Source: a phage
Length of the DNA stretch: 64,000 nucleotides
Assembly (NCBI GenBank): GCA_009015555.1
Contig: GCA_009015555.1_3613.1
Direction: 5' to 3' (one strand)
Shown: positions 31,890 through 54,632 of the stretch, in pieces
How the letters are laid out: each line of letters opens with the position of its first letter
Numbering within the stretch: the stretch's first letter is position 1
Notes under the pieces: generated by a model
What the model was told of the DNA's origin: nothing
The model's input: the letters and a program-made list of their open reading frames with translations, nothing else
The model's database searches: none
Program-made: the position numbers and the translations under genes

Positions 31890-31917
31890 AGTATACCTAC
31901 ATTCCCGTAGAAGTCAA
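31890..31917 (-). promoter_or_regulatory. sigma70-like promoter (TTGACT, 16-nt spacer, TATACT)
   Basis: -35 at 31917..31912 and -10 at 31895..31890 read on minus strand; overlaps stop of upstream gene. Confidence 0.4.
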
Positions 31918-32564
31918 CTTACTTTTGAAATTACCAGTTTTTGAACGTAGCCCTGCAACAGGGCGTAAGTTACACCACCCACATAACTACCGCCGACAGA
32001 GAGTCTCTCTCCGGCACCGAACCAGTTGGGAACAGAAAAGTTCTGAACTTCCCCGCTCACCATATTTCTCACACGGATCTGCCGAGAGTCCGGGTAAGTT
32101 TCGATCCGCAGATTAAAAACTTGGCCCTGATTACCATTGATCGAGCAACGAACATAATTTCCGCTGTTGTCTGTTGGGAACAATTGGTGCCCTCCAACCC
32201 CAACCATGCCATAATGCGCCAGTCCGGCGACGATCCTTGTGACGTAATCGCCAGAACACCACACCATCTGGGTTGCAGAAGGACTAAGGCTTTGGAAAAC
32301 AACCTCAATCACCATAGGATCTGTGGATAGATCCACTGAATACTGAGTTTGGAAATACCCTTGGCCTTGGGCAGGTATGAACTGCATGACCCTTCCAATC
32401 CCTGCAACATCGACTATCCTTGGGCCTGTGCCGACCAAAGAGAAGGTGTGGTTTTCAGACCAGTCCTTCAAAACAGTCTCGCCGAGAGATTGCCGTGTGG
32501 CATCCACGTAGAGAATGGCATCCTCTTTGCGAGATGACTTCCCTATAATCATTATCTCGTTCAT
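31914..32564 (-). CDS. N-tag family paralog E: ConA/LamG-like jelly-roll protein (N-terminus MNEIMIIGKSS)
   Basis: Track ORF 31914..32567 trimmed to ATG; LamG-like pattern; N-terminal motif shared with four other genes. Confidence 0.55.
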   Translation of the reverse strand: MNEIMIIGKSSRKEDAILYVDATRQSLGETVLKDWSENHTFSLVGTGPRIVDVAGIGRVMQFIPAQGQGYFQTQYSVDLSTDPMVIEVVFQSLSPSATQMVWCSGDYVTRIVAGLAHYGMVGVGGHQLFPTDNSGNYVRCSINGNQGQVFNLRIETYPDSRQIRVRNMVSGEVQNFSVPNWFGAGERLSVGGSYVGGVTYALLQGYVQKLVISKVS

Positions 32565-42104: not shown

Positions 42105-42131
42105 TAATAAAAAACCGCCCCGAAGGGCGGT
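42105..42131 (-). terminator. rho-independent terminator
   Basis: ACCGCCC-TTCG-GGGCGGT stem followed by TTTTTATTA on minus strand. Confidence 0.55.
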
Positions 42132-42757
42132 TATCTTTTCTTGGTTTCAATCTTGATTGAGCGCATCAAGCACCGGGAATGATACAGAGCTTGGTCTTGA
42201 GAACCGCCGATCATGAGATTAAAACTTGTCCCGTCTGCAAGATCTGGGATGGCTTTGTTGTTTATCGTTGGCGATCCATCAACAGTTACAGTGAGGCTCT
42301 TGTTAATAGACTCGAAGATTATCTCGTGATAAACACCTTTTGTCACGGCGGGGCCTGCATTGACCCTGCTGGAATTATACCACCAGTCAAGGTATCCGTT
42401 ACTCAGCATGTTGGCGATCCAAGTGCCAGACCCGTTTCCTTGAATAGATCTCCCCACAAATATCATTGGGTTTGTTGCCGCTGCCTTAACCTTCAGATTC
42501 ATGGTGATCTTCCAGTCATTGTTTAGCAGCTTGTCTGGGGTGGTCCCTCCGCTCAATGCCCCATCTCCAACAAAATCCATCGCTGGCAGGCCCTCGTCGA
42601 GAACCGTCGCGGATGTTCCGGCGGTCCTGTTGAACGTTATCCCGCGATCAGTGAATCCTGAGAATGTGCCCAAGGGATACTTGGTGAAGTCCAACTCGAA
42701 CCAAGTGCTGTACTTTTTCGGATCTCCGCCCCCCGGCAGTACCAACATCTCTTGCAT
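42131..42757 (-). CDS. N-tag family paralog B: ConA/LamG-like jelly-roll protein (N-terminus MQEMLVLPGGG)
   Basis: 208-aa ORF with RBS GGGGG; LamG-like pattern; shared N-terminal motif. Confidence 0.55.
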   Translation of the reverse strand: MQEMLVLPGGGDPKKYSTWFELDFTKYPLGTFSGFTDRGITFNRTAGTSATVLDEGLPAMDFVGDGALSGGTTPDKLLNNDWKITMNLKVKAAATNPMIFVGRSIQGNGSGTWIANMLSNGYLDWWYNSSRVNAGPAVTKGVYHEIIFESINKSLTVTVDGSPTINNKAIPDLADGTSFNLMIGGSQDQALYHSRCLMRSIKIETKKR

Positions 42758-45468: not shown

Positions 45469-45557
45469 ACTCTCTCCTTTTTGGCATACCTCCACTCAGG
45501 ATAGCCCAATGCCTCGTAAAGATCAACCTATCAATACCCGTCCTTGGGTGAATAATC

Positions 45558-46274
45558 CTAAAGTTTTTCGAACACGGGCCACCAGATCCCGTTGTTTACC
45601 GTCGTCTGCAAGTAGGTGTTGTCGAACTGCACATACTTAAAGGGGTACGTTGCCGAGTCCGGGTAGTTAGTGTCAAACCTACCACGAATGAATGCCTTGG
45701 TGGTCAGGTTTCCTTTCACCATTGCCCCGCTTCTCGTAGACCCGGTGTAGTTAGGCTTCGTGACCTTCACCGACTCCGGGACAAAAAGATCATGAAAGTT
45801 GATGACCGCCTTTACCTGATCTGACAATGCCCACATATTGGGCACAAAAAGATCGTATTCCTGAACCGGAGTGAAGTCAGGAACATTTATGGTGGCAGAG
45901 GCTCCATAAACATCGTTGGGCACACCTGACATCAAGCGGACCCGGTAGGTATCCTGCCCAATGGTGATCTTTCTGTCCTGTGCTGTTGCTGCCACCCCTG
46001 GTGGGGTTATTCCAACACCGTCACTACCGAATACCGCCCCTTTGAGATAAACAGCCTGGTAATTGTCCCGTCCGATGGGATGGGAGGGGACAATAATGGT
46101 CTTGCCTCCCTTTGTGTAAATGAAATATTTAAAGGAAGCCGCCTTGGCAAGTATATTCGCCGGGGCAAGATCTGCAACAAGGTCAGCGTGTGATATGAAG
46201 GAACCTTCTGAGAGAATCCCTACATACGTAGCCTCCGCGCCGGGCTTAGAGGCAACAATCAACATTTCCTGCAT
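45558..46274 (-). CDS. N-tag family paralog C (N-terminus MQEMLIVASKPG), beta-rich hypothetical
   Basis: 238-aa ORF with RBS GGAGGG; shared N-terminal motif. Confidence 0.55.
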   Translation of the reverse strand: MQEMLIVASKPGAEATYVGILSEGSFISHADLVADLAPANILAKAASFKYFIYTKGGKTIIVPSHPIGRDNYQAVYLKGAVFGSDGVGITPPGVAATAQDRKITIGQDTYRVRLMSGVPNDVYGASATINVPDFTPVQEYDLFVPNMWALSDQVKAVINFHDLFVPESVKVTKPNYTGSTRSGAMVKGNLTTKAFIRGRFDTNYPDSATYPFKYVQFDNTYLQTTVNNGIWWPVFEKL

Positions 46275-46453
46275 CAGCCCTCCAGTTTAACCATGCACGA
46301 ACCGCTTTTCCATTTGCTTACGGTGCCCAGAACTTCGACCTTGGCCTTGTTCCCTTTGATCTGGCGGATGATCCCACCCTGAAGCTCATTGTAGCCCCAA
46401 TAAATAGCCACCTTGTCGCCCTCTTTAAGAGGGGTCCCACGATAATCAGTCAT
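46274..46453 (-). CDS. small hypothetical protein (59 aa), not in ORF track
   Basis: ATG overlapping preceding mini-ORF stop; stop overlaps start of paralog C and supplies its RBS. Confidence 0.3.
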   Translation of the reverse strand: MTDYRGTPLKEGDKVAIYWGYNELQGGIIRQIKGNKAKVEVLGTVSKWKSGSCMVKLEG

Positions 46454-46538
46454 TATGGTTCCTTATGTCCATGATGTACATGACAACACAAAGGAGGCCC
46501 ACGGCCCCCAAGAAAACTAAACCAAACCAATCCGGCAT
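46446..46538 (-). CDS. mini membrane peptide (30 aa), not in ORF track
   Basis: MPDWFGLVFLGAVGLLCVVMYIMD...; start overlaps stop of gene 46538..47005. Confidence 0.2.
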   Translation of the reverse strand: MPDWFGLVFLGAVGLLCVVMYIMDIRNHND

Positions 46539-47005
46539 CAGTCCACCTCAACAGGCTCGATGAAGTAGTTCTGGCCCTTCTTGACTTGCATGAAGGTCCC
46601 CTCTACCCAAGTACCTGAACCTTGAATACGTGTTTCCGAGATGTCATACTTCGTGTTTGGATCACGTTTTCTGTGAAGCAGTTGGAGAATCAACTCCAGA
46701 CTACTGAAGGAGATCTTGTATTCAAATCCCTCTTTGTCTTCAAAGACCGCCACCGCAGAACTCCTTCCTTTCTCTGTGTGAGAAAACTGGAGAGACATCT
46801 TGCGGGTTTCGTGCTCTATCTCTTCTACACGTTTGTTTTCCGAACCGGGCCGGAACATATGAACAAAGTCACAGAGTGGGAATCGGGCAGCATACACCTC
46901 TTCTGCTTTTGGTGTAAAAGCAAATCCCTCCCATCCTGTGAACCACTTCCCGCCTGACCCGGCTTCCGCCAAGGCAGGGTATGAACGTTTACGAAGTTTT
47001 CCCAT
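46538..47005 (-). CDS. hypothetical protein
   Basis: Track ORF 46538..47008 (GTG) trimmed to ATG 47005; RBS GGGAGG. Confidence 0.5.
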   Translation of the reverse strand: MGKLRKRSYPALAEAGSGGKWFTGWEGFAFTPKAEEVYAARFPLCDFVHMFRPGSENKRVEEIEHETRKMSLQFSHTEKGRSSAVAVFEDKEGFEYKISFSSLELILQLLHRKRDPNTKYDISETRIQGSGTWVEGTFMQVKKGQNYFIEPVEVD

Positions 47006-47958
47006 CACAAACCTCCCGGTAATTTGTATTGATAGATCGTCTTCGAACTATAACCAGATAGCCAGAAGAACAAGTCGCCCACCCTTAAACATGGGCAGTG
47101 GAACTGGTTTGTTGGGACAGAAGCTGTTGTTTTACTACCTGTCAAGATATCGAACTGGTTAAGTACCGTACTGCTTTGTTGGACTGTATATATAACCCCT
47201 TTCCATACGCAAGACGGCATATCATAAGGGGTAAATCCCGGGCTTGTAACTTGTACTGTTGAGATCTGAAGGTTTGTCAAATCCACACGGAGGACATCCA
47301 GATATGGAGAGCCGTCACCCTCGCTTGTGTTCTTTATTGAACCCCCTCCGGTTATATAAACAAACCCGCCCATCAAAGTGGCGTCCCCACCAGACACCCC
47401 GTGAGAAAAAGCACCGGAAAGAACTACGTCTTCCCAAGCCAAGCCATCTATCCGGCACCTGCGGATTGCATTGGATGAAAACCCGGTGGACTTGTAGACA
47501 TTGGCAATAGAGTACACGTAATCGTCATCTACGTAAATAGCTCCATAATCATAAGGCAAGGCGGGATAAGTTTTGTACACACCCGTCTCCAAGTTCAGGG
47601 ATTCGATTACCCCTGTCTTTGTCCTGCCTTGTCCGAAGTAAAGAACTCCCTTATGGAGATAACTGGCGGTATTCAACGGTATGGTTCTTCCAGCCACACC
47701 AGGGACCATACCTGAGTATGCCATGTCGCTCACATTGAAGGTGTGCAAACCATCTGCTTTCAGGACATAGATTTTTCCATTCCAATACCCGATCGCGACG
47801 GCTGCTGTGCTGGTAGGAGAAGAGCCTCCCAAAGTTCCACCACGGGATTGGCCCGGCATCATGGCGGCTGATGCCGACACTAATGCCTCGTCAGCATTAA
47901 CGTCATCCATGTCCACAGGCACCCCTTTCTTCCCTCCTGCCATTAATAACTCGATCAT
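47005..47958 (-). CDS. N-tag family paralog D: Kelch-like beta-propeller protein (N-terminus MIELLMAGGKKG)
   Basis: 317 aa; RBS GGAGGA; repeated G.IY..GG-type blades; shared N-terminal motif. Confidence 0.55.
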   Translation of the reverse strand: MIELLMAGGKKGVPVDMDDVNADEALVSASAAMMPGQSRGGTLGGSSPTSTAAVAIGYWNGKIYVLKADGLHTFNVSDMAYSGMVPGVAGRTIPLNTASYLHKGVLYFGQGRTKTGVIESLNLETGVYKTYPALPYDYGAIYVDDDYVYSIANVYKSTGFSSNAIRRCRIDGLAWEDVVLSGAFSHGVSGGDATLMGGFVYITGGGSIKNTSEGDGSPYLDVLRVDLTNLQISTVQVTSPGFTPYDMPSCVWKGVIYTVQQSSTVLNQFDILTGSKTTASVPTNQFHCPCLRVGDLFFWLSGYSSKTIYQYKLPGGL

Positions 47959-48149
47959 TATTCCTCCACCAACTCGCCCGCGCCGTTGTACCGAGTGTTC
48001 CAGTCCCTCAGCACGGAATCGTACCCGTACTCAGATCTCTTTTCTGCCCCGCACCAGCCGCAGGTTATTACGTGCCTGTCTTGATAATGGGTATCTTCCC
48101 AGTAATCAGGTTGCTTACCACAGAAAGGGCATGGTTTAATATCAGTCAT
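47958..48149 (-). CDS. Lar-family-like restriction-alleviation zinc-ribbon protein
   Basis: Track ORF 47958..48182 trimmed to ATG 48149 (RBS GGAG); MTDIKPCPFCG...CGWCG resembles the Lar-family CPFCG signature. Confidence 0.4.
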   Translation of the reverse strand: MTDIKPCPFCGKQPDYWEDTHYQDRHVITCGWCGAEKRSEYGYDSVLRDWNTRYNGAGELVEE

Positions 48150-48516
48150 CGGACCACTCCTTGTCGTACCCGGCATCTTCACGGGTCATAGCGATATGCG
48201 GGGCATCGCACCCGTCATACCAGTTATCGACAAACATTTTCTCGGACCCTTCTACGATGAACAGGCCCGCCTGCCGTAATTCCTCTTGCAGGTTGCCAAA
48301 CATATTATCGTTCTGGTCGAAGATCACCAGGCCTGCATCATACGACGGTCCGTCTTCATGACGGTAAACGACCATATCACCACTGTAAGTGATCTTCAGC
48401 TTGGAATCGATCTCGTCAAGCCTGTCGGAAACCTCTTGCCAAGAATCCGTGTGCAGATTGCCCAGCGGAGGGTCTAACAGTGCAATGACGCCCACGGTTA
48501 CACGTTGCTCGCTCAT
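48142..48516 (-). CDS. hypothetical acidic protein
   Basis: 124-aa ORF with RBS GAGAGGAG. Confidence 0.5.
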   Translation of the reverse strand: MSEQRVTVGVIALLDPPLGNLHTDSWQEVSDRLDEIDSKLKITYSGDMVVYRHEDGPSYDAGLVIFDQNDNMFGNLQEELRQAGLFIVEGSEKMFVDNWYDGCDAPHIAMTREDAGYDKEWSDD

Positions 48517-48531
48517 GAATACTCCTCTCTA

Positions 48532-49185
48532 TTAATCAAGAACAAATGGTGCCGTCGGCACTGAGAAATTACCGTCGTAACGGGCCACCTTGCTGATACG
48601 GAATTGGTCAAGCCCACCAAACATAGTTTGTTCGCCGAAGCCGATTCTTGCAAAACGGCTTACGTCACTCCACCCTCCGGAAGCAAAGGACGTGGTGGTT
48701 GGTGCCACTTTACCGTTCAGATATAACTTCGTGACTCCCCCTTTGCTCACAATAGCCACATGTGTCCAGTTGGAAAGAGGCCAGTAGTTGGTACTAAAGC
48801 TCAAATAATTCTTCTGGTCCTGAAGATAAACCACACTTTGGTAAACCTTGAGGCAACTCTGAGTACCTGTCCCAAAATACATCCACCAGGAAGAGGCAAC
48901 TGAAGAGTTTCTTGACCAAAATTCGATAGTGAACTCGTCCTCTGGTTTGAAGACGAGATCTGTTTTCTCTGTCGCCATCATCTCAAAATAGCTGGCAGTG
49001 TTAGTACAGTCAAAGTATTTGTTGTTGAATTTTCCGTAACTTCCGGTGCCTACTGTTGCTACTTTTGAAAATTGCCGGGTAGGCTTGGCAACATCAATAC
49101 CTCCCTTGTCTGCTTGCAGGAGAAGGAGAGTTTTATCTCCCTTCATGCCGCCGCCTGCACCAGCCGCCAATAGGATTTCCTGCAC
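48532..49185 (-). CDS. N-tag family paralog A: ConA/LamG-like jelly-roll protein (N-terminus MQEILLAAGAGGG)
   Basis: 217 aa; GTG start with AAGGAG; LamG-type pattern (W.HVAIV...LYLNGK...DQFRISKVARY). Confidence 0.6.
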   Translation of the reverse strand: MQEILLAAGAGGGMKGDKTLLLLQADKGGIDVAKPTRQFSKVATVGTGSYGKFNNKYFDCTNTASYFEMMATEKTDLVFKPEDEFTIEFWSRNSSVASSWWMYFGTGTQSCLKVYQSVVYLQDQKNYLSFSTNYWPLSNWTHVAIVSKGGVTKLYLNGKVAPTTTSFASGGWSDVSRFARIGFGEQTMFGGLDQFRISKVARYDGNFSVPTAPFVLD

Positions 49186-49195
49186 TTTTTACTCC

Positions 49196-49867
49196 TTAAT
49201 GATTGAAGTGGTAAACAGCCCGGGCAAACCCCTCTGGGGTCAGCGATCGTAGCTGTTTGGTCCTCTCCGACTTACCACCTAAAAACTTCCAGCCCCAGAA
49301 GCAGCCTATATGAGGCACAGGCTTCTTGTCAGGCATCACAAAGCCATTCCCTACCCAGAGGCAAGTTTTCTTTGTGTAGGCGTTCCTGTACGGCATTTTT
49401 GGGTGGTACGAGCCTTCAATCTGACTCAAGTACCCTCCATACTCGTAAGGGTCGAAATAATGATCCGGCTTGCGCCACAGCGTACTCATCTTACCCACCG
49501 GGTTCTCGACCATCCAAGGACAGCCAAAAACGTTAGCAACACGCTCTACCATTTTAGCATTATCTATCGACTCCATCAACTCCGATTTCGTCCGGGTATG
49601 CTTGGCCCCGGCTACAGACAGGTTGGTGCAGCTTGGAAATGCAAAGATAATGTCCGGCTTCGGAATACCCGCTTTGGCAACGAAGGCTTCGAAGTCTTCA
49701 TCGATCCAACAATTCACATACTGGATGTTGGGGTGCTCCCGGCGCAGTTCATACTGACCATGATCAGCGGTGTCTGCATTAAAGCAGAACACCTTCCAAC
49801 CATTCAGGGCGTACTCATACCCCATGAAACCAGACCCATCAAACAGGCTCCAGACGACTTTAGACAT
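49196..49867 (-). CDS. DNA cytosine-C5 methyltransferase-like protein (short, divergent)
   Basis: Track ORF 49196..49966 trimmed to ATG 49867; motifs LFDGSGFMG (motif I-like), FPSC (Pro-Cys-type), MVENPVG (ENV-like). Confidence 0.35.
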   Translation of the reverse strand: MSKVVWSLFDGSGFMGYEYALNGWKVFCFNADTADHGQYELRREHPNIQYVNCWIDEDFEAFVAKAGIPKPDIIFAFPSCTNLSVAGAKHTRTKSELMESIDNAKMVERVANVFGCPWMVENPVGKMSTLWRKPDHYFDPYEYGGYLSQIEGSYHPKMPYRNAYTKKTCLWVGNGFVMPDKKPVPHIGCFWGWKFLGGKSERTKQLRSLTPEGFARAVYHFNH

Positions 49868-50114
49868 TACCAACCTCGCCGTGAATTGTGCAAGGGACAA
49901 ATACATCACGTCCGAAACCATCGCGCATCTTAACTTTTTGGTAAGGGAACAGGATGTCGTCTTCATCTGCCGCGATCATGTTTTCGCCGTGTTCGATGTA
50001 AAAACGAAGCTGCCGGATCAGATAGATGGAATCTATACCGGAAGAGTCCAGCAGGTCCTCTTCGTCGTAATCTGCCATGATGCGCTGCTTATCCAGACGG
50101 ACCCAATATTTCAT
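49860..50114 (-). CDS. hypothetical acidic protein
   Basis: 84-aa ORF with RBS GGAGAGAA. Confidence 0.5.
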   Translation of the reverse strand: MKYWVRLDKQRIMADYDEEDLLDSSGIDSIYLIRQLRFYIEHGENMIAADEDDILFPYQKVKMRDGFGRDVFVPCTIHGEVGNV

Positions 50115-50290
50115 TGCATTCTCTCCAAAATGATCCCTGCCTCTTTGGCCTCTTTCACAGGCACATATCCACCATGCCAGTCAAGGATGAACTCCTTGCC
50201 CTGGCGCACGAAGATTTGGTAGCGTCCGTTAACCGTCAACGCCGGAACCTTGCGAGTTGTGCTGACCACTCTTACTGTACCACCCATCAT
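50111..50290 (-). CDS. small hypothetical protein
   Basis: C-terminal 59 codons of track ORF 50111..50461, starting at ATG overlapping stop of upstream membrane ORF. Confidence 0.35.
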   Translation of the reverse strand: MMGGTVRVVSTTRKVPALTVNGRYQIFVRQGKEFILDWHGGYVPVKEAKEAGIILERMQ

Positions 50291-50466
50291 AGCGTACCCC
50301 TCGCAATAAGTCCACCAAAAGACATCAGAACGGCGATAAAGTTGGTGGTAAACACCACCCGGCTCCAGATGCCGTCGCCATAAATCTTGGGCCAGTACAC
50401 CGCAGTTAACATGAAAAACCCATTGGTAATCAGGAAGATCAGGTCTAAAATATCGCGGCAACTCAT
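50287..50466 (-). CDS. small membrane protein (59 aa), not in ORF track
   Basis: Hydrophobic MSCRDILDLIFLITNGFFMLTAVYW...; ATGA overlap with upstream gene; preferred over the W/R-rich overlapping frame. Confidence 0.3.
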   Translation of the reverse strand: MSCRDILDLIFLITNGFFMLTAVYWPKIYGDGIWSRVVFTTNFIAVLMSFGGLIARGTL

Positions 50467-50804
50467 CGTTTAGCTCCTTTCACAGACACAACAACCAAGA
50501 ACTGGAATACCGCCAAGACGCCCATCAAGAATAACCCTGCGATAGTGGCAAAAAATATGAACGGTAAACCGTATACCGATGCCAAAACGCAACCACCGAT
50601 AAACCCAGCCACAATCACCTCAATGCCCTCCAAGATGAACATGGCTTCACATTTCTTGTACTGATCTCGTAAGATAAAGAACAGCGCCACTGCCGAGAAG
50701 GCTATGAGGTAAATAATTAGGGTTGTCGGTGAAGTGATGGGTTTCAGGATTTCCCACCACCAATCCTGTGCCGCCGTCATCAGCCCAATAATCCTGTCAA
50801 TCAT
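50463..50804 (-). CDS. membrane protein (3-4 TM)
   Basis: 113-aa hydrophobic ORF with RBS GAGG. Confidence 0.5.
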   Translation of the reverse strand: MIDRIIGLMTAAQDWWWEILKPITSPTTLIIYLIAFSAVALFFILRDQYKKCEAMFILEGIEVIVAGFIGGCVLASVYGLPFIFFATIAGLFLMGVLAVFQFLVVVSVKGAKR

Positions 50805-51073
50805 GATCCATACCTCGCTTCATAAAGGAAAGTGTCCAAATCTGTTTTGTTGTCCCAGCCCGGCTCGGAGACAGGCATCAGCCAATCTACGTTGAGGATC
50901 AGCATATCCCCTTTGCGGTCGAAGGACTCCCACCAACCGAACTCGTCGGCCTTGCTCAGGAAGACCATCTTCCCGTGGAACTCTTTTGGCCCGGCGTAGA
51001 CCAAGGCATACCCGCCGGAGAACAACGTCCCCTCGTGCAGGTTGCAAGGGTCTTTGCGTGAATCGTCAATCAT
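50801..51073 (-). CDS. hypothetical protein
   Basis: 90-aa ORF; ATGA overlap with upstream gene. Confidence 0.5.
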   Translation of the reverse strand: MIDDSRKDPCNLHEGTLFSGGYALVYAGPKEFHGKMVFLSKADEFGWWESFDRKGDMLILNVDWLMPVSEPGWDNKTDLDTFLYEARYGS

Positions 51074-51234
51074 TTACGTGGTTTCCTCTTTGAGGGTTGT
51101 GGTTCACAGACCCGCGCCCGGTAGCAACTGTACTCAACGTAGCGCCAGGTTTTCTTTAAGTGCTCGATCAGTTCTTTGAGATGTTCCTCGGTCCGGGCAT
51201 AGCCGCACACATGATAACAGTCCCCGACTGACAT
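51070..51234 (-). CDS. small Cys-rich protein
   Basis: C-terminal 54 codons of track ORF 51070..51351 from ATG 51234; CYHVCG...CYRARVC pattern. Confidence 0.35.
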   Translation of the reverse strand: MSVGDCYHVCGYARTEEHLKELIEHLKKTWRYVEYSCYRARVCEPQPSKRKPRK

Positions 51235-51275
51235 CCGGCACTTCACACTGTAGTGTGTTTCGAAGTTCTTGTCAA

Positions 51276-51416
51276 TCACTTCAACAACTCCCCTATCGCC
51301 AGCCCGGCGATCAGAAGCTCCAGCATACCAACCATCATTGCAATCACCCAAATCACCTCATCCACAGGTCGGCGACCAAAACAGTGTGCCAGCAGCGTCA
51401 TGAAAAATGTGATCAT
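51276..51416 (-). CDS. small membrane protein (46 aa), not in ORF track
   Basis: MITFFMTLLAHCF...VIWVIAMMVGMLELLIAGLAIG; ATGA overlap with upstream gene. Confidence 0.3.
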   Translation of the reverse strand: MITFFMTLLAHCFGRRPVDEVIWVIAMMVGMLELLIAGLAIGELLK

Positions 51417-51709
51417 AATCCAAGTTCCTCCGCAGAATAAATGTCGTTGCCCTCATAACCACGGAACAGTACCATCACTGGGTCACAGCGGCCCTTGGTA
51501 GACATGAAACGCGACTTCTCGGCATTCACCAAGTAAACATCTTTGTTCACCGGAAATGTCTTTGGCTGACCCATACCGGGCGTTGCCACCGTGATACGGC
51601 TGTGCTTAGGGATCTTCTTGACGACTTCGACCTGCTTGCCGACCAGCGACTCGATCCCTTCACGTTCTGCGACCATATCCCGCACTACCGGGACCAGTAA
51701 CTTAATCAT
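51413..51709 (-). CDS. hypothetical protein
   Basis: Track ORF 51413..51754 trimmed to ATG 51709 (RBS GGAGG). Confidence 0.45.
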   Translation of the reverse strand: MIKLLVPVVRDMVAEREGIESLVGKQVEVVKKIPKHSRITVATPGMGQPKTFPVNKDVYLVNAEKSRFMSTKGRCDPVMVLFRGYEGNDIYSAEELGL

Positions 51710-51917
51710 CCACAACCTCCACTTCATCTTCAAACAGGCAAACCGACAATCCATCGGTGTTCTTCACCACATAGTACACCGGGGTTCCATCGTAGCCACC
51801 ATAGGGTACACCTTGAACTTCCAGAATATCCCCGACCTTAGTCCGAGTGAACAGGGCCGGGTGCGACCAGCAACGGTTCATGCTGGCTACCTTGACCTTG
51901 ACTTTAGTCACAATCAT
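51702..51917 (-). CDS. hypothetical protein
   Basis: 71-aa ORF with RBS GTAGGAGG. Confidence 0.5.
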   Translation of the reverse strand: MIVTKVKVKVASMNRCWSHPALFTRTKVGDILEVQGVPYGGYDGTPVYYVVKNTDGLSVCLFEDEVEVVDD

Positions 51918-51943
51918 ATAACCTCCTACTGGTTGATAAGGGG

Positions 51944-51972
51944 AGTTTACAGGGGTTTTATCGGGGAGTCAA
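51944..51972 (-). promoter_or_regulatory. sigma70-like promoter (TTGACT, 17-nt spacer, TAAACT)
   Basis: Hexamers on minus strand directly downstream of terminator. Confidence 0.4.
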
Positions 51973-51974
51973 AC

Positions 51975-51998
51975 GAAAAAAGGCCCCCGAAGGGACCT
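51975..51998 (-). terminator. rho-independent terminator
   Basis: GGUCCC-UUCG-GGGGCC stem (one G-U pair) followed by UUUUUU on minus strand. Confidence 0.5.
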
Positions 51999-52003
51999 TT
52001 TTA

Positions 52004-52522
52004 TTATTCTGCCGCTGCTTCAGGCATTGCCTCAGCAACTTCCGGCTCCGGAGTGAATACACGGAAAGAGGTTTCTGTCTCGATAGAGAAACGGTCATTG
52101 TGCCGACGCAGAAATGCGTATACCGAACGGGCCTGCGTGTTTGCGTACATGATCATATCTGCCGGGTGGAACTCCAAACAGGAGTGGCCTGACGCCTGCA
52201 CACGCTGAATAACATTATTCGCCTGCACGGTGATCACTTGGGCGATAAAGTTACGCAGTTCGGTAGATGCCGTTCCAGTACGAACAAACTCCGACAGGTG
52301 CGGATAAAGATATTGCGGCACATTCCGATCCAGCGGATAGAACTGAGAGTCGTTCGGCACAGACGTCGAGAAGGTCACCTTCACAGAGTTACCAAGATTC
52401 TGCAAGATCGCATTCTCAAAAGCGGTTGTCACAATATCGGTGATGTCCACAACCGCACCATTTTTCATCGGCGGGATGTCAAAATCGTTACGTTCGCCAC
52501 CACGTTGACGTTCAATAATCAT
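52004..52522 (-). CDS. hypothetical protein
   Basis: Track ORF 52004..52528 (GTG) trimmed to ATG 52522 with GAGGTG. Confidence 0.5.
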   Translation of the reverse strand: MIIERQRGGERNDFDIPPMKNGAVVDITDIVTTAFENAILQNLGNSVKVTFSTSVPNDSQFYPLDRNVPQYLYPHLSEFVRTGTASTELRNFIAQVITVQANNVIQRVQASGHSCLEFHPADMIMYANTQARSVYAFLRRHNDRFSIETETSFRVFTPEPEVAEAMPEAAAE

Positions 52523-52540
52523 AATCACCTCGAAGTAAAT

Positions 52541-52555
52541 GGGGCCGAAGCCCCG
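52541..52555 (-). promoter_or_regulatory. GC hairpin with UUCG loop (GGGGCUUCGGCCCC), no U-tract
   Basis: Perfect stem immediately after primase-helicase stop. Confidence 0.4.
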
Positions 52556-52559
52556 TTAA

Positions 52560-54632
52560 TTAAAATGGGCAGTCATCATCCATTTCATCAGGCATGTCCG
52601 GGACTTCCGGGATGTCTGGGATAACGACAGGTTTTGTTTGAACAGGCTCCGGAGTTTCCTCCTTCGTCTGTTCCTCTTCCGGAACTTCCAGGCCCAGATC
52701 CTGCTGTTCAACCTGCTGTTCCTTGGCCTCTTCCTGTGCTGCCAGGAACTGCTCGTCCGCCGGAGGGATGTCATCATCCGTCAGGTCAGATCCGGTCTTA
52801 TCTTGGTTCTCCGGAGACAGAGGTTGTGCTGCACTTCCCGTCGGCTCCTGATAAGAATCGTTGCTCGGATCATGTTCCGGGTGGACCGCATACCACTCAC
52901 GGAGAGTTTCGTATGGACTGTCCAAGAACCCCTCTGGCGGTTCCAGATAATCACCTGTGTCGATGTCGTAGAACACCGGGAACTTACCAGCACGACCGTG
53001 CTTACGGTCATCCAACAGCACAAACCAAGAGGTGTTGCGCTGCTTCATTGGAAGCTCCGGGTCCTTATTACGCTCAATACCTACCATGTAGTAGGTGTTA
53101 CGCATCATTGCACGGGAACCAGCAAACTGTGCCGACTGAACCTGACCACCGAACTCGTGAGGCTTACCAGTCTCCGGCTTGTTCAGGTGACAGAAGCAAC
53201 AATACCAGAAGCCCAGTTCCTTCGCAAGTTTGGAGATTTCATCAGAGAAACGCTCCAACTCCACGTTCGCTTCGGATGCAGACATACCCTGCACCAGACG
53301 AGTGATCGGGTCAATGAAGATGTCCTCACAACCCTCTACGATAACCGCATGGCGGATAGCGCCCTTAACCTCGTCCCATACTGCACGACCGTAGTTGTTG
53401 TAGTAGATGATGTTGTCACCTACCTTGTCGGTAGCCTCAATCAGTTCTTCCTGTTTGAAGTAACCACGCTGACCCTCGAAGACTTCCTCACCCCAGATGT
53501 CCCGGTAAGTTCCGTCCTCTTGTGGGATCATCACCTTCTCTGCGTTCACGAAATCCTTGTGGTACAGCTTACCAGCGACCTTCTTACACGTGATCTCGTT
53601 CTCTTCCTCGAACTTGAACACTGCGGCCTTACGGCCCTCTGTACCGATGATGTGCTCCACAAGCTGGTTAAGCCACTCGGACTTACCCATCTTAACCCCG
53701 GCACCGACGAACATACCTTCCCCGAGACGACGGCCCAACGTCAGGCGCGTCATTGTAGGCCAAGGCCATTTCTTCCCGAGTTTAGGGATCTCGTGTGCCT
53801 TCTCACGGAACTGAGAGTAGGTCGCAAAGCCGTCCGGCACGTACTCTTTAGGCTTCATCGCTGCCCAGAAAAGCTGCTGCGCCAAGCCCTTATTGTACAT
53901 GTCACAAGGGTCCATGTCTTCAGGGATATCGACGACTTTCATCTGTGGGATGACAGAATACACTGCCGCCACGGCATCTTTACCCTTCATGATACCCTTG
54001 GCTTTCTCAGTTTCGTTCGCCCGGTCGGCGTCGAAAGCCACAATGATCTCTTCGAACTTACTCAGGAGCTTATAGTTGTTCTTCTGAGACAGGTTCTGTA
54101 CTGCGTTGGATGTGCCGTTGGAGATTGACACAACCGTGAAGTTAGGCTTACGGGCATTGCCGTCCTTCGATTTGTAGTTCTCGCGGAGAACCTGCCACAA
54201 AATCGCTGCATCGTACTCACCTTCGGTGATGAAGATCATACGCTTGGACGACTTGTTGGCACCTTCCAGGCCAAACAGATCACAGGCTACTGACTGGAAG
54301 CCGATGGTGCTGAAGTGGCCCTTCTGCTGCTTAGGGATGGTCAGGTCGCGCTTCTTAAAACCAACGATCTTTCCTTCCAAAGTATATGGAAAATAATGCG
54401 CTTCCGGCGTCATACCGTCCTTAGCAGACAGTTTTGTGCGAATACCGAAGCGTTCAGCCGTCTTCTCATCAATCCCGCGCTCTGGGATCGCCTTGAAGGG
54501 ATACGTCTTTACATCTTCAACTGTCTCTTCAACTCGCTGCACTCCGCCTCCAAAACCACGGGTGGTTGACGCCTTCGGGTTGGTGTACCCCGTCTTATAT
54601 CCACCGAACAACCCTTCACCAAATGTGCTCAC
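52560..54632 (-). CDS. DNA primase-helicase (TOPRIM primase domain fused to DnaB-like helicase)
   Basis: 690 aa; GTG start preceded by GGGAGG; FITEGEYDA TOPRIM-type motif; P-loop GAGVKMGKSE in C-terminal half. Confidence 0.75.
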   Translation of the reverse strand: MSTFGEGLFGGYKTGYTNPKASTTRGFGGGVQRVEETVEDVKTYPFKAIPERGIDEKTAERFGIRTKLSAKDGMTPEAHYFPYTLEGKIVGFKKRDLTIPKQQKGHFSTIGFQSVACDLFGLEGANKSSKRMIFITEGEYDAAILWQVLRENYKSKDGNARKPNFTVVSISNGTSNAVQNLSQKNNYKLLSKFEEIIVAFDADRANETEKAKGIMKGKDAVAAVYSVIPQMKVVDIPEDMDPCDMYNKGLAQQLFWAAMKPKEYVPDGFATYSQFREKAHEIPKLGKKWPWPTMTRLTLGRRLGEGMFVGAGVKMGKSEWLNQLVEHIIGTEGRKAAVFKFEEENEITCKKVAGKLYHKDFVNAEKVMIPQEDGTYRDIWGEEVFEGQRGYFKQEELIEATDKVGDNIIYYNNYGRAVWDEVKGAIRHAVIVEGCEDIFIDPITRLVQGMSASEANVELERFSDEISKLAKELGFWYCCFCHLNKPETGKPHEFGGQVQSAQFAGSRAMMRNTYYMVGIERNKDPELPMKQRNTSWFVLLDDRKHGRAGKFPVFYDIDTGDYLEPPEGFLDSPYETLREWYAVHPEHDPSNDSYQEPTGSAAQPLSPENQDKTGSDLTDDDIPPADEQFLAAQEEAKEQQVEQQDLGLEVPEEEQTKEETPEPVQTKPVVIPDIPEVPDMPDEMDDDCPF

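Follow-up and report, generated by a model that had tools for sequence, protein, structure and literature searches.

A Lar-family zinc-ribbon protein and its variable gene slot in a CR3-like phage

Introduction

Does a 63-residue protein with a Lar-like signature help a lytic myovirus to escape restriction by its host, and do the genes around it take part? The protein is encoded in a 64,000-nucleotide stretch of phage DNA, the whole of which is referred to here as the window. An earlier note had read the gene as a Lar-like restriction-alleviation zinc ribbon that could form an anti-restriction island together with a C5-methyltransferase-like gene and two paralogs sharing an N-terminal tag (N-tag).

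The family takes its name from Lar of the Rac prophage, which acts on restriction by the type I enzyme EcoKI (King & Murray 1995, cited in PMC11482910 and PMC6158711). This activity is the sole known experimental basis for "restriction alleviation" in the family, and the 2018 paper (PMC6158711) still places Lar among the anti-restriction proteins that "could be investigated". Rac Lar, or RalR, has also been reported to be a DNase toxin that cuts methylated and unmethylated DNA alike, without specificity, and that has the small RNA RalA as its partner (PMC4041452). The biochemistry of Rac Lar is thus itself disputed, between restriction alleviation and a DNase toxin.

Results and discussion

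The gene and its reading frame

An open reading frame is present at 47958-48149, as the earlier note had it, and its product, MTDIKPCPFCGKQPDYWEDTHYQDRHVITCGWCGAEKRSEYGYDSVLRDWNTRYNGAGELVEE (63 aa), matches the residues quoted there. The gene lies on the minus strand, which the note had not given, and comprises 63 codons and a TAA stop, with the ATG at 48149-48147 and the TAA at 47960-47958. A Shine-Dalgarno sequence, AAGGAG (48157-48162, minus strand), is found 7 nt 5' of the ATG, within the 3' end of the upstream gene for a 124-aa protein (48142-48516, minus strand). At the start, the ATG overlaps the stop of this gene by 8 nt (ATGACTGA); at the other end a single nucleotide is common to the TAA and the ATG of a downstream 317-aa gene (TAATG). 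Given this ribosome-binding site and the overlaps on both sides, the Lar gene sits in a tightly packed leftward block, located between the primase/helicase and the DNA polymerase, and is probably translationally coupled to both neighbours. A GTG at 48182 would give a 74-aa form of the protein; the ATG is favoured because every homologue, and the RefSeq annotation of Cronobacter phage CR3, begins there. The Certrevirus early-promoter consensus TGTTGAC-N19-TATAAT (PMC7344957) has no site near the Lar gene and neither has the looser pattern TTGAC…TAWAAT, while a generic sigma-70 scan of the same region gave weak sites only. An open reading frame of 110 aa on the opposite strand (47807-48139) was rejected as a gene, as both the profile matches described below and the pattern of synonymous and non-synonymous differences fit the minus-strand frame.

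Relatives and selection

Over 7.1 kb around the gene (45500-52600) the window is 96.7% identical to CR3 across 89% of the length, and on this comparison it is a CR3-like Certrevirus (Vequintavirinae). The 63-aa protein is 100% identical to CR3_gp064 (YP_006383079.1) and to its counterparts in CR8 and PBES 02. CR3 also has the same neighbours, with the 124-aa gene upstream, the 317-aa gene downstream and the methylase and LamG genes further upstream, and metagenome contigs carry the protein in matching gene order. RefSeq names CR3_gp064 a "Lar-like restriction alleviation protein". The gene is therefore already annotated as a Lar-family member, so that its identification is not new and adds little to the annotation; what goes beyond it are two side observations only, the modular nature of the Lar slot and a set of N-tagged virion lectins, both described below.

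The copies in CR3, CR8 and PBES 02 differ from the window gene at 4-5 nucleotides, all of them synonymous. The short-form copies of the CR3 clade as a whole show 11 distinct differences, every one of them synonymous, a pattern that by our own estimate would arise with a probability of about 1e-8 without selection, synonymous sites being about one fifth of the total. In comparison with Pectobacterium phage PcCB7V, over the first 54 codons, dN/dS is 0.11, while saturation of synonymous sites (pS 0.77-0.85) is seen against CB7, POP15 and P7_Pc, with pN at only 0.16-0.20. The Lar gene is real and under strong purifying selection, and the pattern within the CR3 clade argues that the short form has been kept as a working protein.

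Family membership and predicted fold

Both Lar models match the protein with scores that exceed their curated cut-offs. Pfam PF14354 (Lar_restr_allev) matches residues 3-53 to model positions 2-57 of 58 with 41.7 bits (E=1.4e-10; gathering threshold 28.6 bits), and the NCBIfam subfamily model TIGR03655 (anti_R_Lar) matches residues 4-53 to positions 1-54 of 55 with 49.4 bits (E=4e-13; cut-off 39.6 bits). The Lar assignment of the earlier note is thereby borne out; the lack of a profile hit, which the note had named as the finding that would speak against it, was not what was seen. Three PHROGs labelled Lar-like also match, the best being phrog_38103 (E=8e-27). In a word-indexed protein search the 63-aa query returned a single near-identical protein, and the family became visible by a full HMMER scan.

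The features that mark a Lar protein, two zinc knuckles (CPxCG…CxxC) in a protein or domain of about 55-65 residues and a C-terminal helix ending in W-N-x-R, are all present. The first zinc knuckle, C7-P-F-C10 (48120-48131, minus strand), is conserved in alignments of relatives that include E. coli Lar, and the second is C30-G-W-C33 (48051-48062, minus strand). The W50-N51-T-R53 motif (47991-48002, minus strand) is placed at the end of the single helix. In an alignment of the 23 closest relatives with E. coli Lar, residues C7, P8, F9, C30, C33, W50, N51 and R53 are invariant and C10 and G11 nearly so. An AlphaFold2 model built from 22 sequences (mean pLDDT 90.7) has three short strands and one helix, formed by residues 43-51. 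The protein is thus confidently predicted to be a stand-alone Cys4 zinc ribbon with one helix ending in W-N-x-R, and it would be expected to bind zinc. Sequence searches of the PDB gave chance matches to RING fingers (MDM2/MDM4) and no solved close relative, and with the model as the query Foldseek returned generic zinc ribbons only (such as ELOF1 and Rpb9; E>=0.2); neither search hints at a function. No second Lar domain was found in the 64-kb window by domain profile search.

Candidate function

As Rac Lar is the only characterised member of the family, the role suggested for the window protein is that of Rac Lar. Type I restriction alleviation is the best available hypothesis, which we hold tentatively, as having a real chance of being right while falling somewhat short of probable; both the host target and the alleviation itself we infer for this protein from family membership only. 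The protein would blunt the restriction of unmodified phage DNA by a host type I (type IA-like) system soon after infection, and would bind the host enzyme in a manner that favours methylation over cleavage.

Several observations are in line with this: the profile scores, the motifs in common with Rac Lar, the ribbon fold, the selection on the gene and the RefSeq name, together with the type I activity of Rac Lar and the host dependence of a Lar-like gene in phage Bas63. E. coli K-12 Rac Lar (b1348, 64 aa), the founding member of PF14354 and TIGR03655, is 32% identical to the window protein over 56 residues, and the two have in common their size, the CPFCG motif, the second CxxC and the C-terminal helix with W-N-x-R. 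They differ in a subfamily insert, YWED..YQDRHVI.C and KRSEYG, that the window protein has, and in their origin, Rac Lar coming from a lambdoid prophage and the window protein from a lytic myovirus. In a knockout screen of Bas63 the Lar-like gene was conditionally essential, being needed less in DH10B than in three further strains; of the latter, however, two do not have intact type I systems, and the authors propose type IV instead (PMC11482910). Besides this failure of host dependence to track intact type I systems, the type I hypothesis has against it the low identity to Rac Lar, at 32%, and a score far below the cut-off of the RalR equivalog model NF007260 (9.6 bits versus 113). The DNase-toxin report on Rac Lar and the generic ribbons returned by Foldseek also count against it, as do two findings taken up below, namely that about two thirds of the closest relatives have variable extensions or tandem copies, and that phage KaOmega has a different zinc ribbon, and no Lar domain, in the same slot.

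The report of DNase activity raises the alternative that the 63-aa protein, like RalR, would cause damage to the DNA of the host, as a small DNase or toxin. While the two proteins belong to the same Pfam family, this would seem highly unlikely in view of the low NF007260 score. No nuclease motif is recognisable in the 63-aa Cys4 ribbon, whose Foldseek matches are non-catalytic, and the gene is located in a lytic-phage operon with no toxin-antitoxin arrangement. An Rfam scan found no family at gathering score anywhere in the window, which bears on RalA only if Rfam models this RNA.

Lambda Ral offers a further comparison. It is described as alleviating type IA restriction and enhancing modification through HsdM's N-terminal domain (review PMC12707154), and its phenotype as reported is that of Rac Lar. 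BLASTP gave no alignment of lambda Ral with the window protein at E<=100, and Ral would be at most a functional analogue. If type I restriction is indeed alleviated by the 63-aa ribbon, phages under development against Cronobacter, Enterobacter and Pectobacterium would have in it a minimal anti-restriction factor that is easy to test. Caution is needed with the name, however, which stems from 32% identity to one tested protein, and because the Lar family is modular, as set out in the next section, "restriction alleviation" is best treated as a hypothesis in the Certreviruses.

Variation of the Lar slot

The full HMMER scan gave 247 cluster representatives at E<=0.001. Among the best 150 of these, 50 are no longer than 70 aa and 100 are longer, with C-terminal extensions that are unrelated to each other. 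The CPxC…CxxC…WNxR pattern occurs in 132 of the same 150, the ribbon being N-terminal in 118 of the 132, and in 20 of the 150 the ribbon occurs more than once, in tandem. Such variable extensions and tandem copies among the closest relatives suggest that the ribbon may be a generic module rather than one with a fixed function.

Similar variation is seen at a single genomic position. Comparison of gene neighbourhoods, confined to Vequintavirinae loci, places the 124-aa gene near the Lar slot in all seven loci examined, with the slot directly downstream of it in CR3, KaOmega, CB7 and PcCB7V. Five arrangements of the slot were observed, which make the position beside the 124-aa gene a domain-swapping hotspot in these Vequintavirinae. 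The Lar domain is joined to one extension, of 70-75 residues, in CB7 (CB7_59, 133 aa), PcCB7V (133 aa) and P7_Pc (128 aa), to a different extension in POP15 (118 aa) and to a second zinc ribbon in Salmonella phage SSBI34 (122 aa). In KaOmega gp66 the second ribbon is found alone, with no Lar domain, and in the window (47961-48000 and 47005-47958) and the rest of the CR3 clade Lar stands alone and is followed by an inserted Kelch-like gene. A single-sequence search of viral contigs for related loci gave CR3 and two 11-residue matches only.

The N-terminal 55-58 residues of the long forms (CB7, PcCB7V, P7_Pc, POP15 and SSBI34) are 49-83% identical to the window protein, which differs from them in having no counterpart to their C-terminal extension of about 55-75 residues. 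The 118-133-aa extended form of the other Certreviruses is a new detail, as is the absence of the extension in the CR3 clade, with the Kelch-like gene at that place. No match to the CB7-type extension was found anywhere in the window. At the DNA level the resemblance to PcCB7V breaks off near codon 51 of Lar and is picked up again within a 156-aa gene; the Kelch-like gene lies between, in the place taken by the Lar extension in the other Certreviruses. Our reading of these comparisons is that in the CR3 clade the Kelch-like gene displaced the extension. The 317-aa Kelch-like gene itself is context and not part of any Lar mechanism.

This modularity allows a different view of the protein, in which the ribbon would be a general docking or nucleic-acid-binding module whose function is set by a fused or cooperating partner, and the CR3-clade protein a domain-only derivative with some role in takeover or evasion other than type I alleviation. 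The unrelated extensions and tandem copies, the five arrangements in one slot, the importance of the Bas63 gene in strains with no intact type I systems and the continued purifying selection on the short form would all fit. Domain-only members are common, however (50 of the best 150 representatives), Rac Lar being one of them, no function other than restriction alleviation is known from experiments on the family, and no result here points to an alternative target. We regard a docking module as possible though rather doubtful.

The partner could also be a neighbouring gene. The 124-aa protein has a pI of 4.14 and a net charge of -18, with 27 Asp and Glu residues as against 9 Lys and Arg; in a comparison of 18 neighbouring genes no other product was as acidic. 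It belongs to phrog_10749, of unknown function, and no match was found in Pfam or, with profile searches included, in the PDB. Its charge is reminiscent of DNA-mimic anti-restriction proteins, which may be taken as a lead only. A more specific, and unlikely, proposal is that the ribbon is a portable targeting module with interchangeable partners, either fused domains or neighbouring genes, that insertion of a virion-lectin gene removed the fused partner in the CR3 clade, and that the ribbon and the acidic 124-aa protein could form a two-gene counter-defence pair. Type I restriction alleviation is still the reading that we prefer for the 63-aa protein.

The methyltransferase-like neighbour

Three genes upstream of Lar and on the same strand is an orphan gene (49196-49867, minus strand; 223 aa from the annotated ATG) that the earlier note had called C5-methyltransferase-like, a label that is supported at the level of the fold and by invariant motifs. 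For the Lar gene it, too, is context only. By sequence the protein gave no match in Pfam, in NCBIfam or in sequence and profile searches of the PDB, so that its C5-like identity rests on the fold search. The best PDB matches of its AlphaFold2 model (pLDDT 88.3) in Foldseek are all C5 DNA methyltransferases (DNMT3A/B, M.HaeIII and MET1), with probability 1.0, E-values down to 3e-7 and TM-scores that are modest, at 0.43-0.54. The features expected of the class, a Rossmann-type fold, FxGxG, the catalytic Pro-Cys and ENV motifs, are all found, and in 35 relatives FDGSG, P78-x-C80 and E121-N-P-V124 do not vary. No separate target-recognition domain is obvious in the 223 residues. Consistent with the assignment, HHpred on the CB7 homologue CB7_63 also points to a C5 methylase (PMC7344957). 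The protein matches phrog_757 (E=1.7e-85), and its family has 4588 matches, the named members of which are DNA cytosine methyltransferases according to NCBI. Most of these more than 4500 proteins are on phage or prophage-sized contigs.

PcCB7V (locus L008, positions 2045-2137) retains 31 residues of the methylase, with 84% identity to residues 193-223, inside a gene annotated as "N-type ATP pyrophosphatase", and this remnant suggests that the methylase was lost recently in this phage.

The N-tag proteins and the proposed island

Five minus-strand genes of the window have products that start with M-x-E-[ILM]-[LM]-[ILMV], in most cases ahead of a few residues rich in Gly or Pro; apart from this tag the five proteins are dissimilar. 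They are a 216-aa protein (31914-32564; MNEIMIIGK) that belongs to phrog_6011, a virion structural protein, a 208-aa LamG protein (42131-42757; MQEMLVLPGGG), a 238-aa protein (45558-46274; MQEMLIVAS) of phrog_1062, of unknown function, the 317-aa Kelch-like protein directly downstream of Lar (47005-47958; MIELLMAGG) and a 217-aa LamG protein (48532-49185; VQEILLAAG) that has a GTG start and a strong Shine-Dalgarno sequence.

CB7_55, a protein that MS/MS detected in purified virions of CB7, has 82% identity to the 238-aa protein; its gene was noted as the one structural gene of that phage to lie away from the morphogenesis region. PHROG and GenBank annotations of relatives of the N-tag proteins refer to the virion or the tail, and jumbo phages have distant homologues that carry the annotation of virion structural protein; those in Psa21 and Bosolaphorus retain the tag. 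We read the N-tag proteins as probable lectin-like virion proteins with a lineage-specific docking tag, and not as anti-restriction genes. We found no description of such an N-tag virion-lectin set. The N-tag paralogs of the earlier note are therefore real genes, but with LamG- or Kelch-like character and virion-type relatives they do not have the role assigned to them there.

An anti-restriction island made up of Lar, the methylase-like gene and the N-tag paralogs consequently finds little room, and we consider it very unlikely. In its favour the methylase is C5-like by fold and close to Lar, the two genes are near each other in CR3, POP15, CB7 and SSBI34, and the acidic 124-aa neighbour has a composition as in DNA-mimic anti-restriction proteins. 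Besides the virion-like nature of the N-tag proteins, however, methylase and Lar are distributed independently: in KaOmega the methylase is present and Lar is missing, in PcCB7V Lar is accompanied only by the methylase remnant, P7_Pc has Lar and no methylase match within an 8-kb locus, and a methylase homologue in a Salmonella prophage has no PF14354 neighbour. Phage φTE carries a Lar-like gene and, according to the CB7 paper (PMC7344957), no cytosine methylase. Moreover, the whole interval from helicase to polymerase is a variable region of small genes. The adjacency of the C5-like orphan methylase weakly favours an island, and the support ends there.

Some further features of the N-tag genes were seen. 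The 238-aa gene, located between a 59-aa DUF7205 gene and the DNA polymerase, is extra in the window relative to CR3; it is present in CB7, PcCB7V, KaOmega and one metagenome contig and absent in CR3 and CR8. In Xanthomonas phage XbC2 a Kelch-like, a 238-type and a LamG-like gene are adjacent, and two of them share another tag, MLPFPxx[IL]xYGN. For the 217-aa LamG gene the GTG at 49185 is the most likely start, since AAGGAG lies 6 nt upstream and this start yields the N-tag. The same GTG is used by KaOmega gp68 and by the gene calls on most of the related contigs listed, while RefSeq CR3_gp066 starts 13 codons later and so misses the tag. In Bosolaphorus the annotation of gp51 begins 16 codons too early; a start at the internal M17 yields MLELLMLGH.
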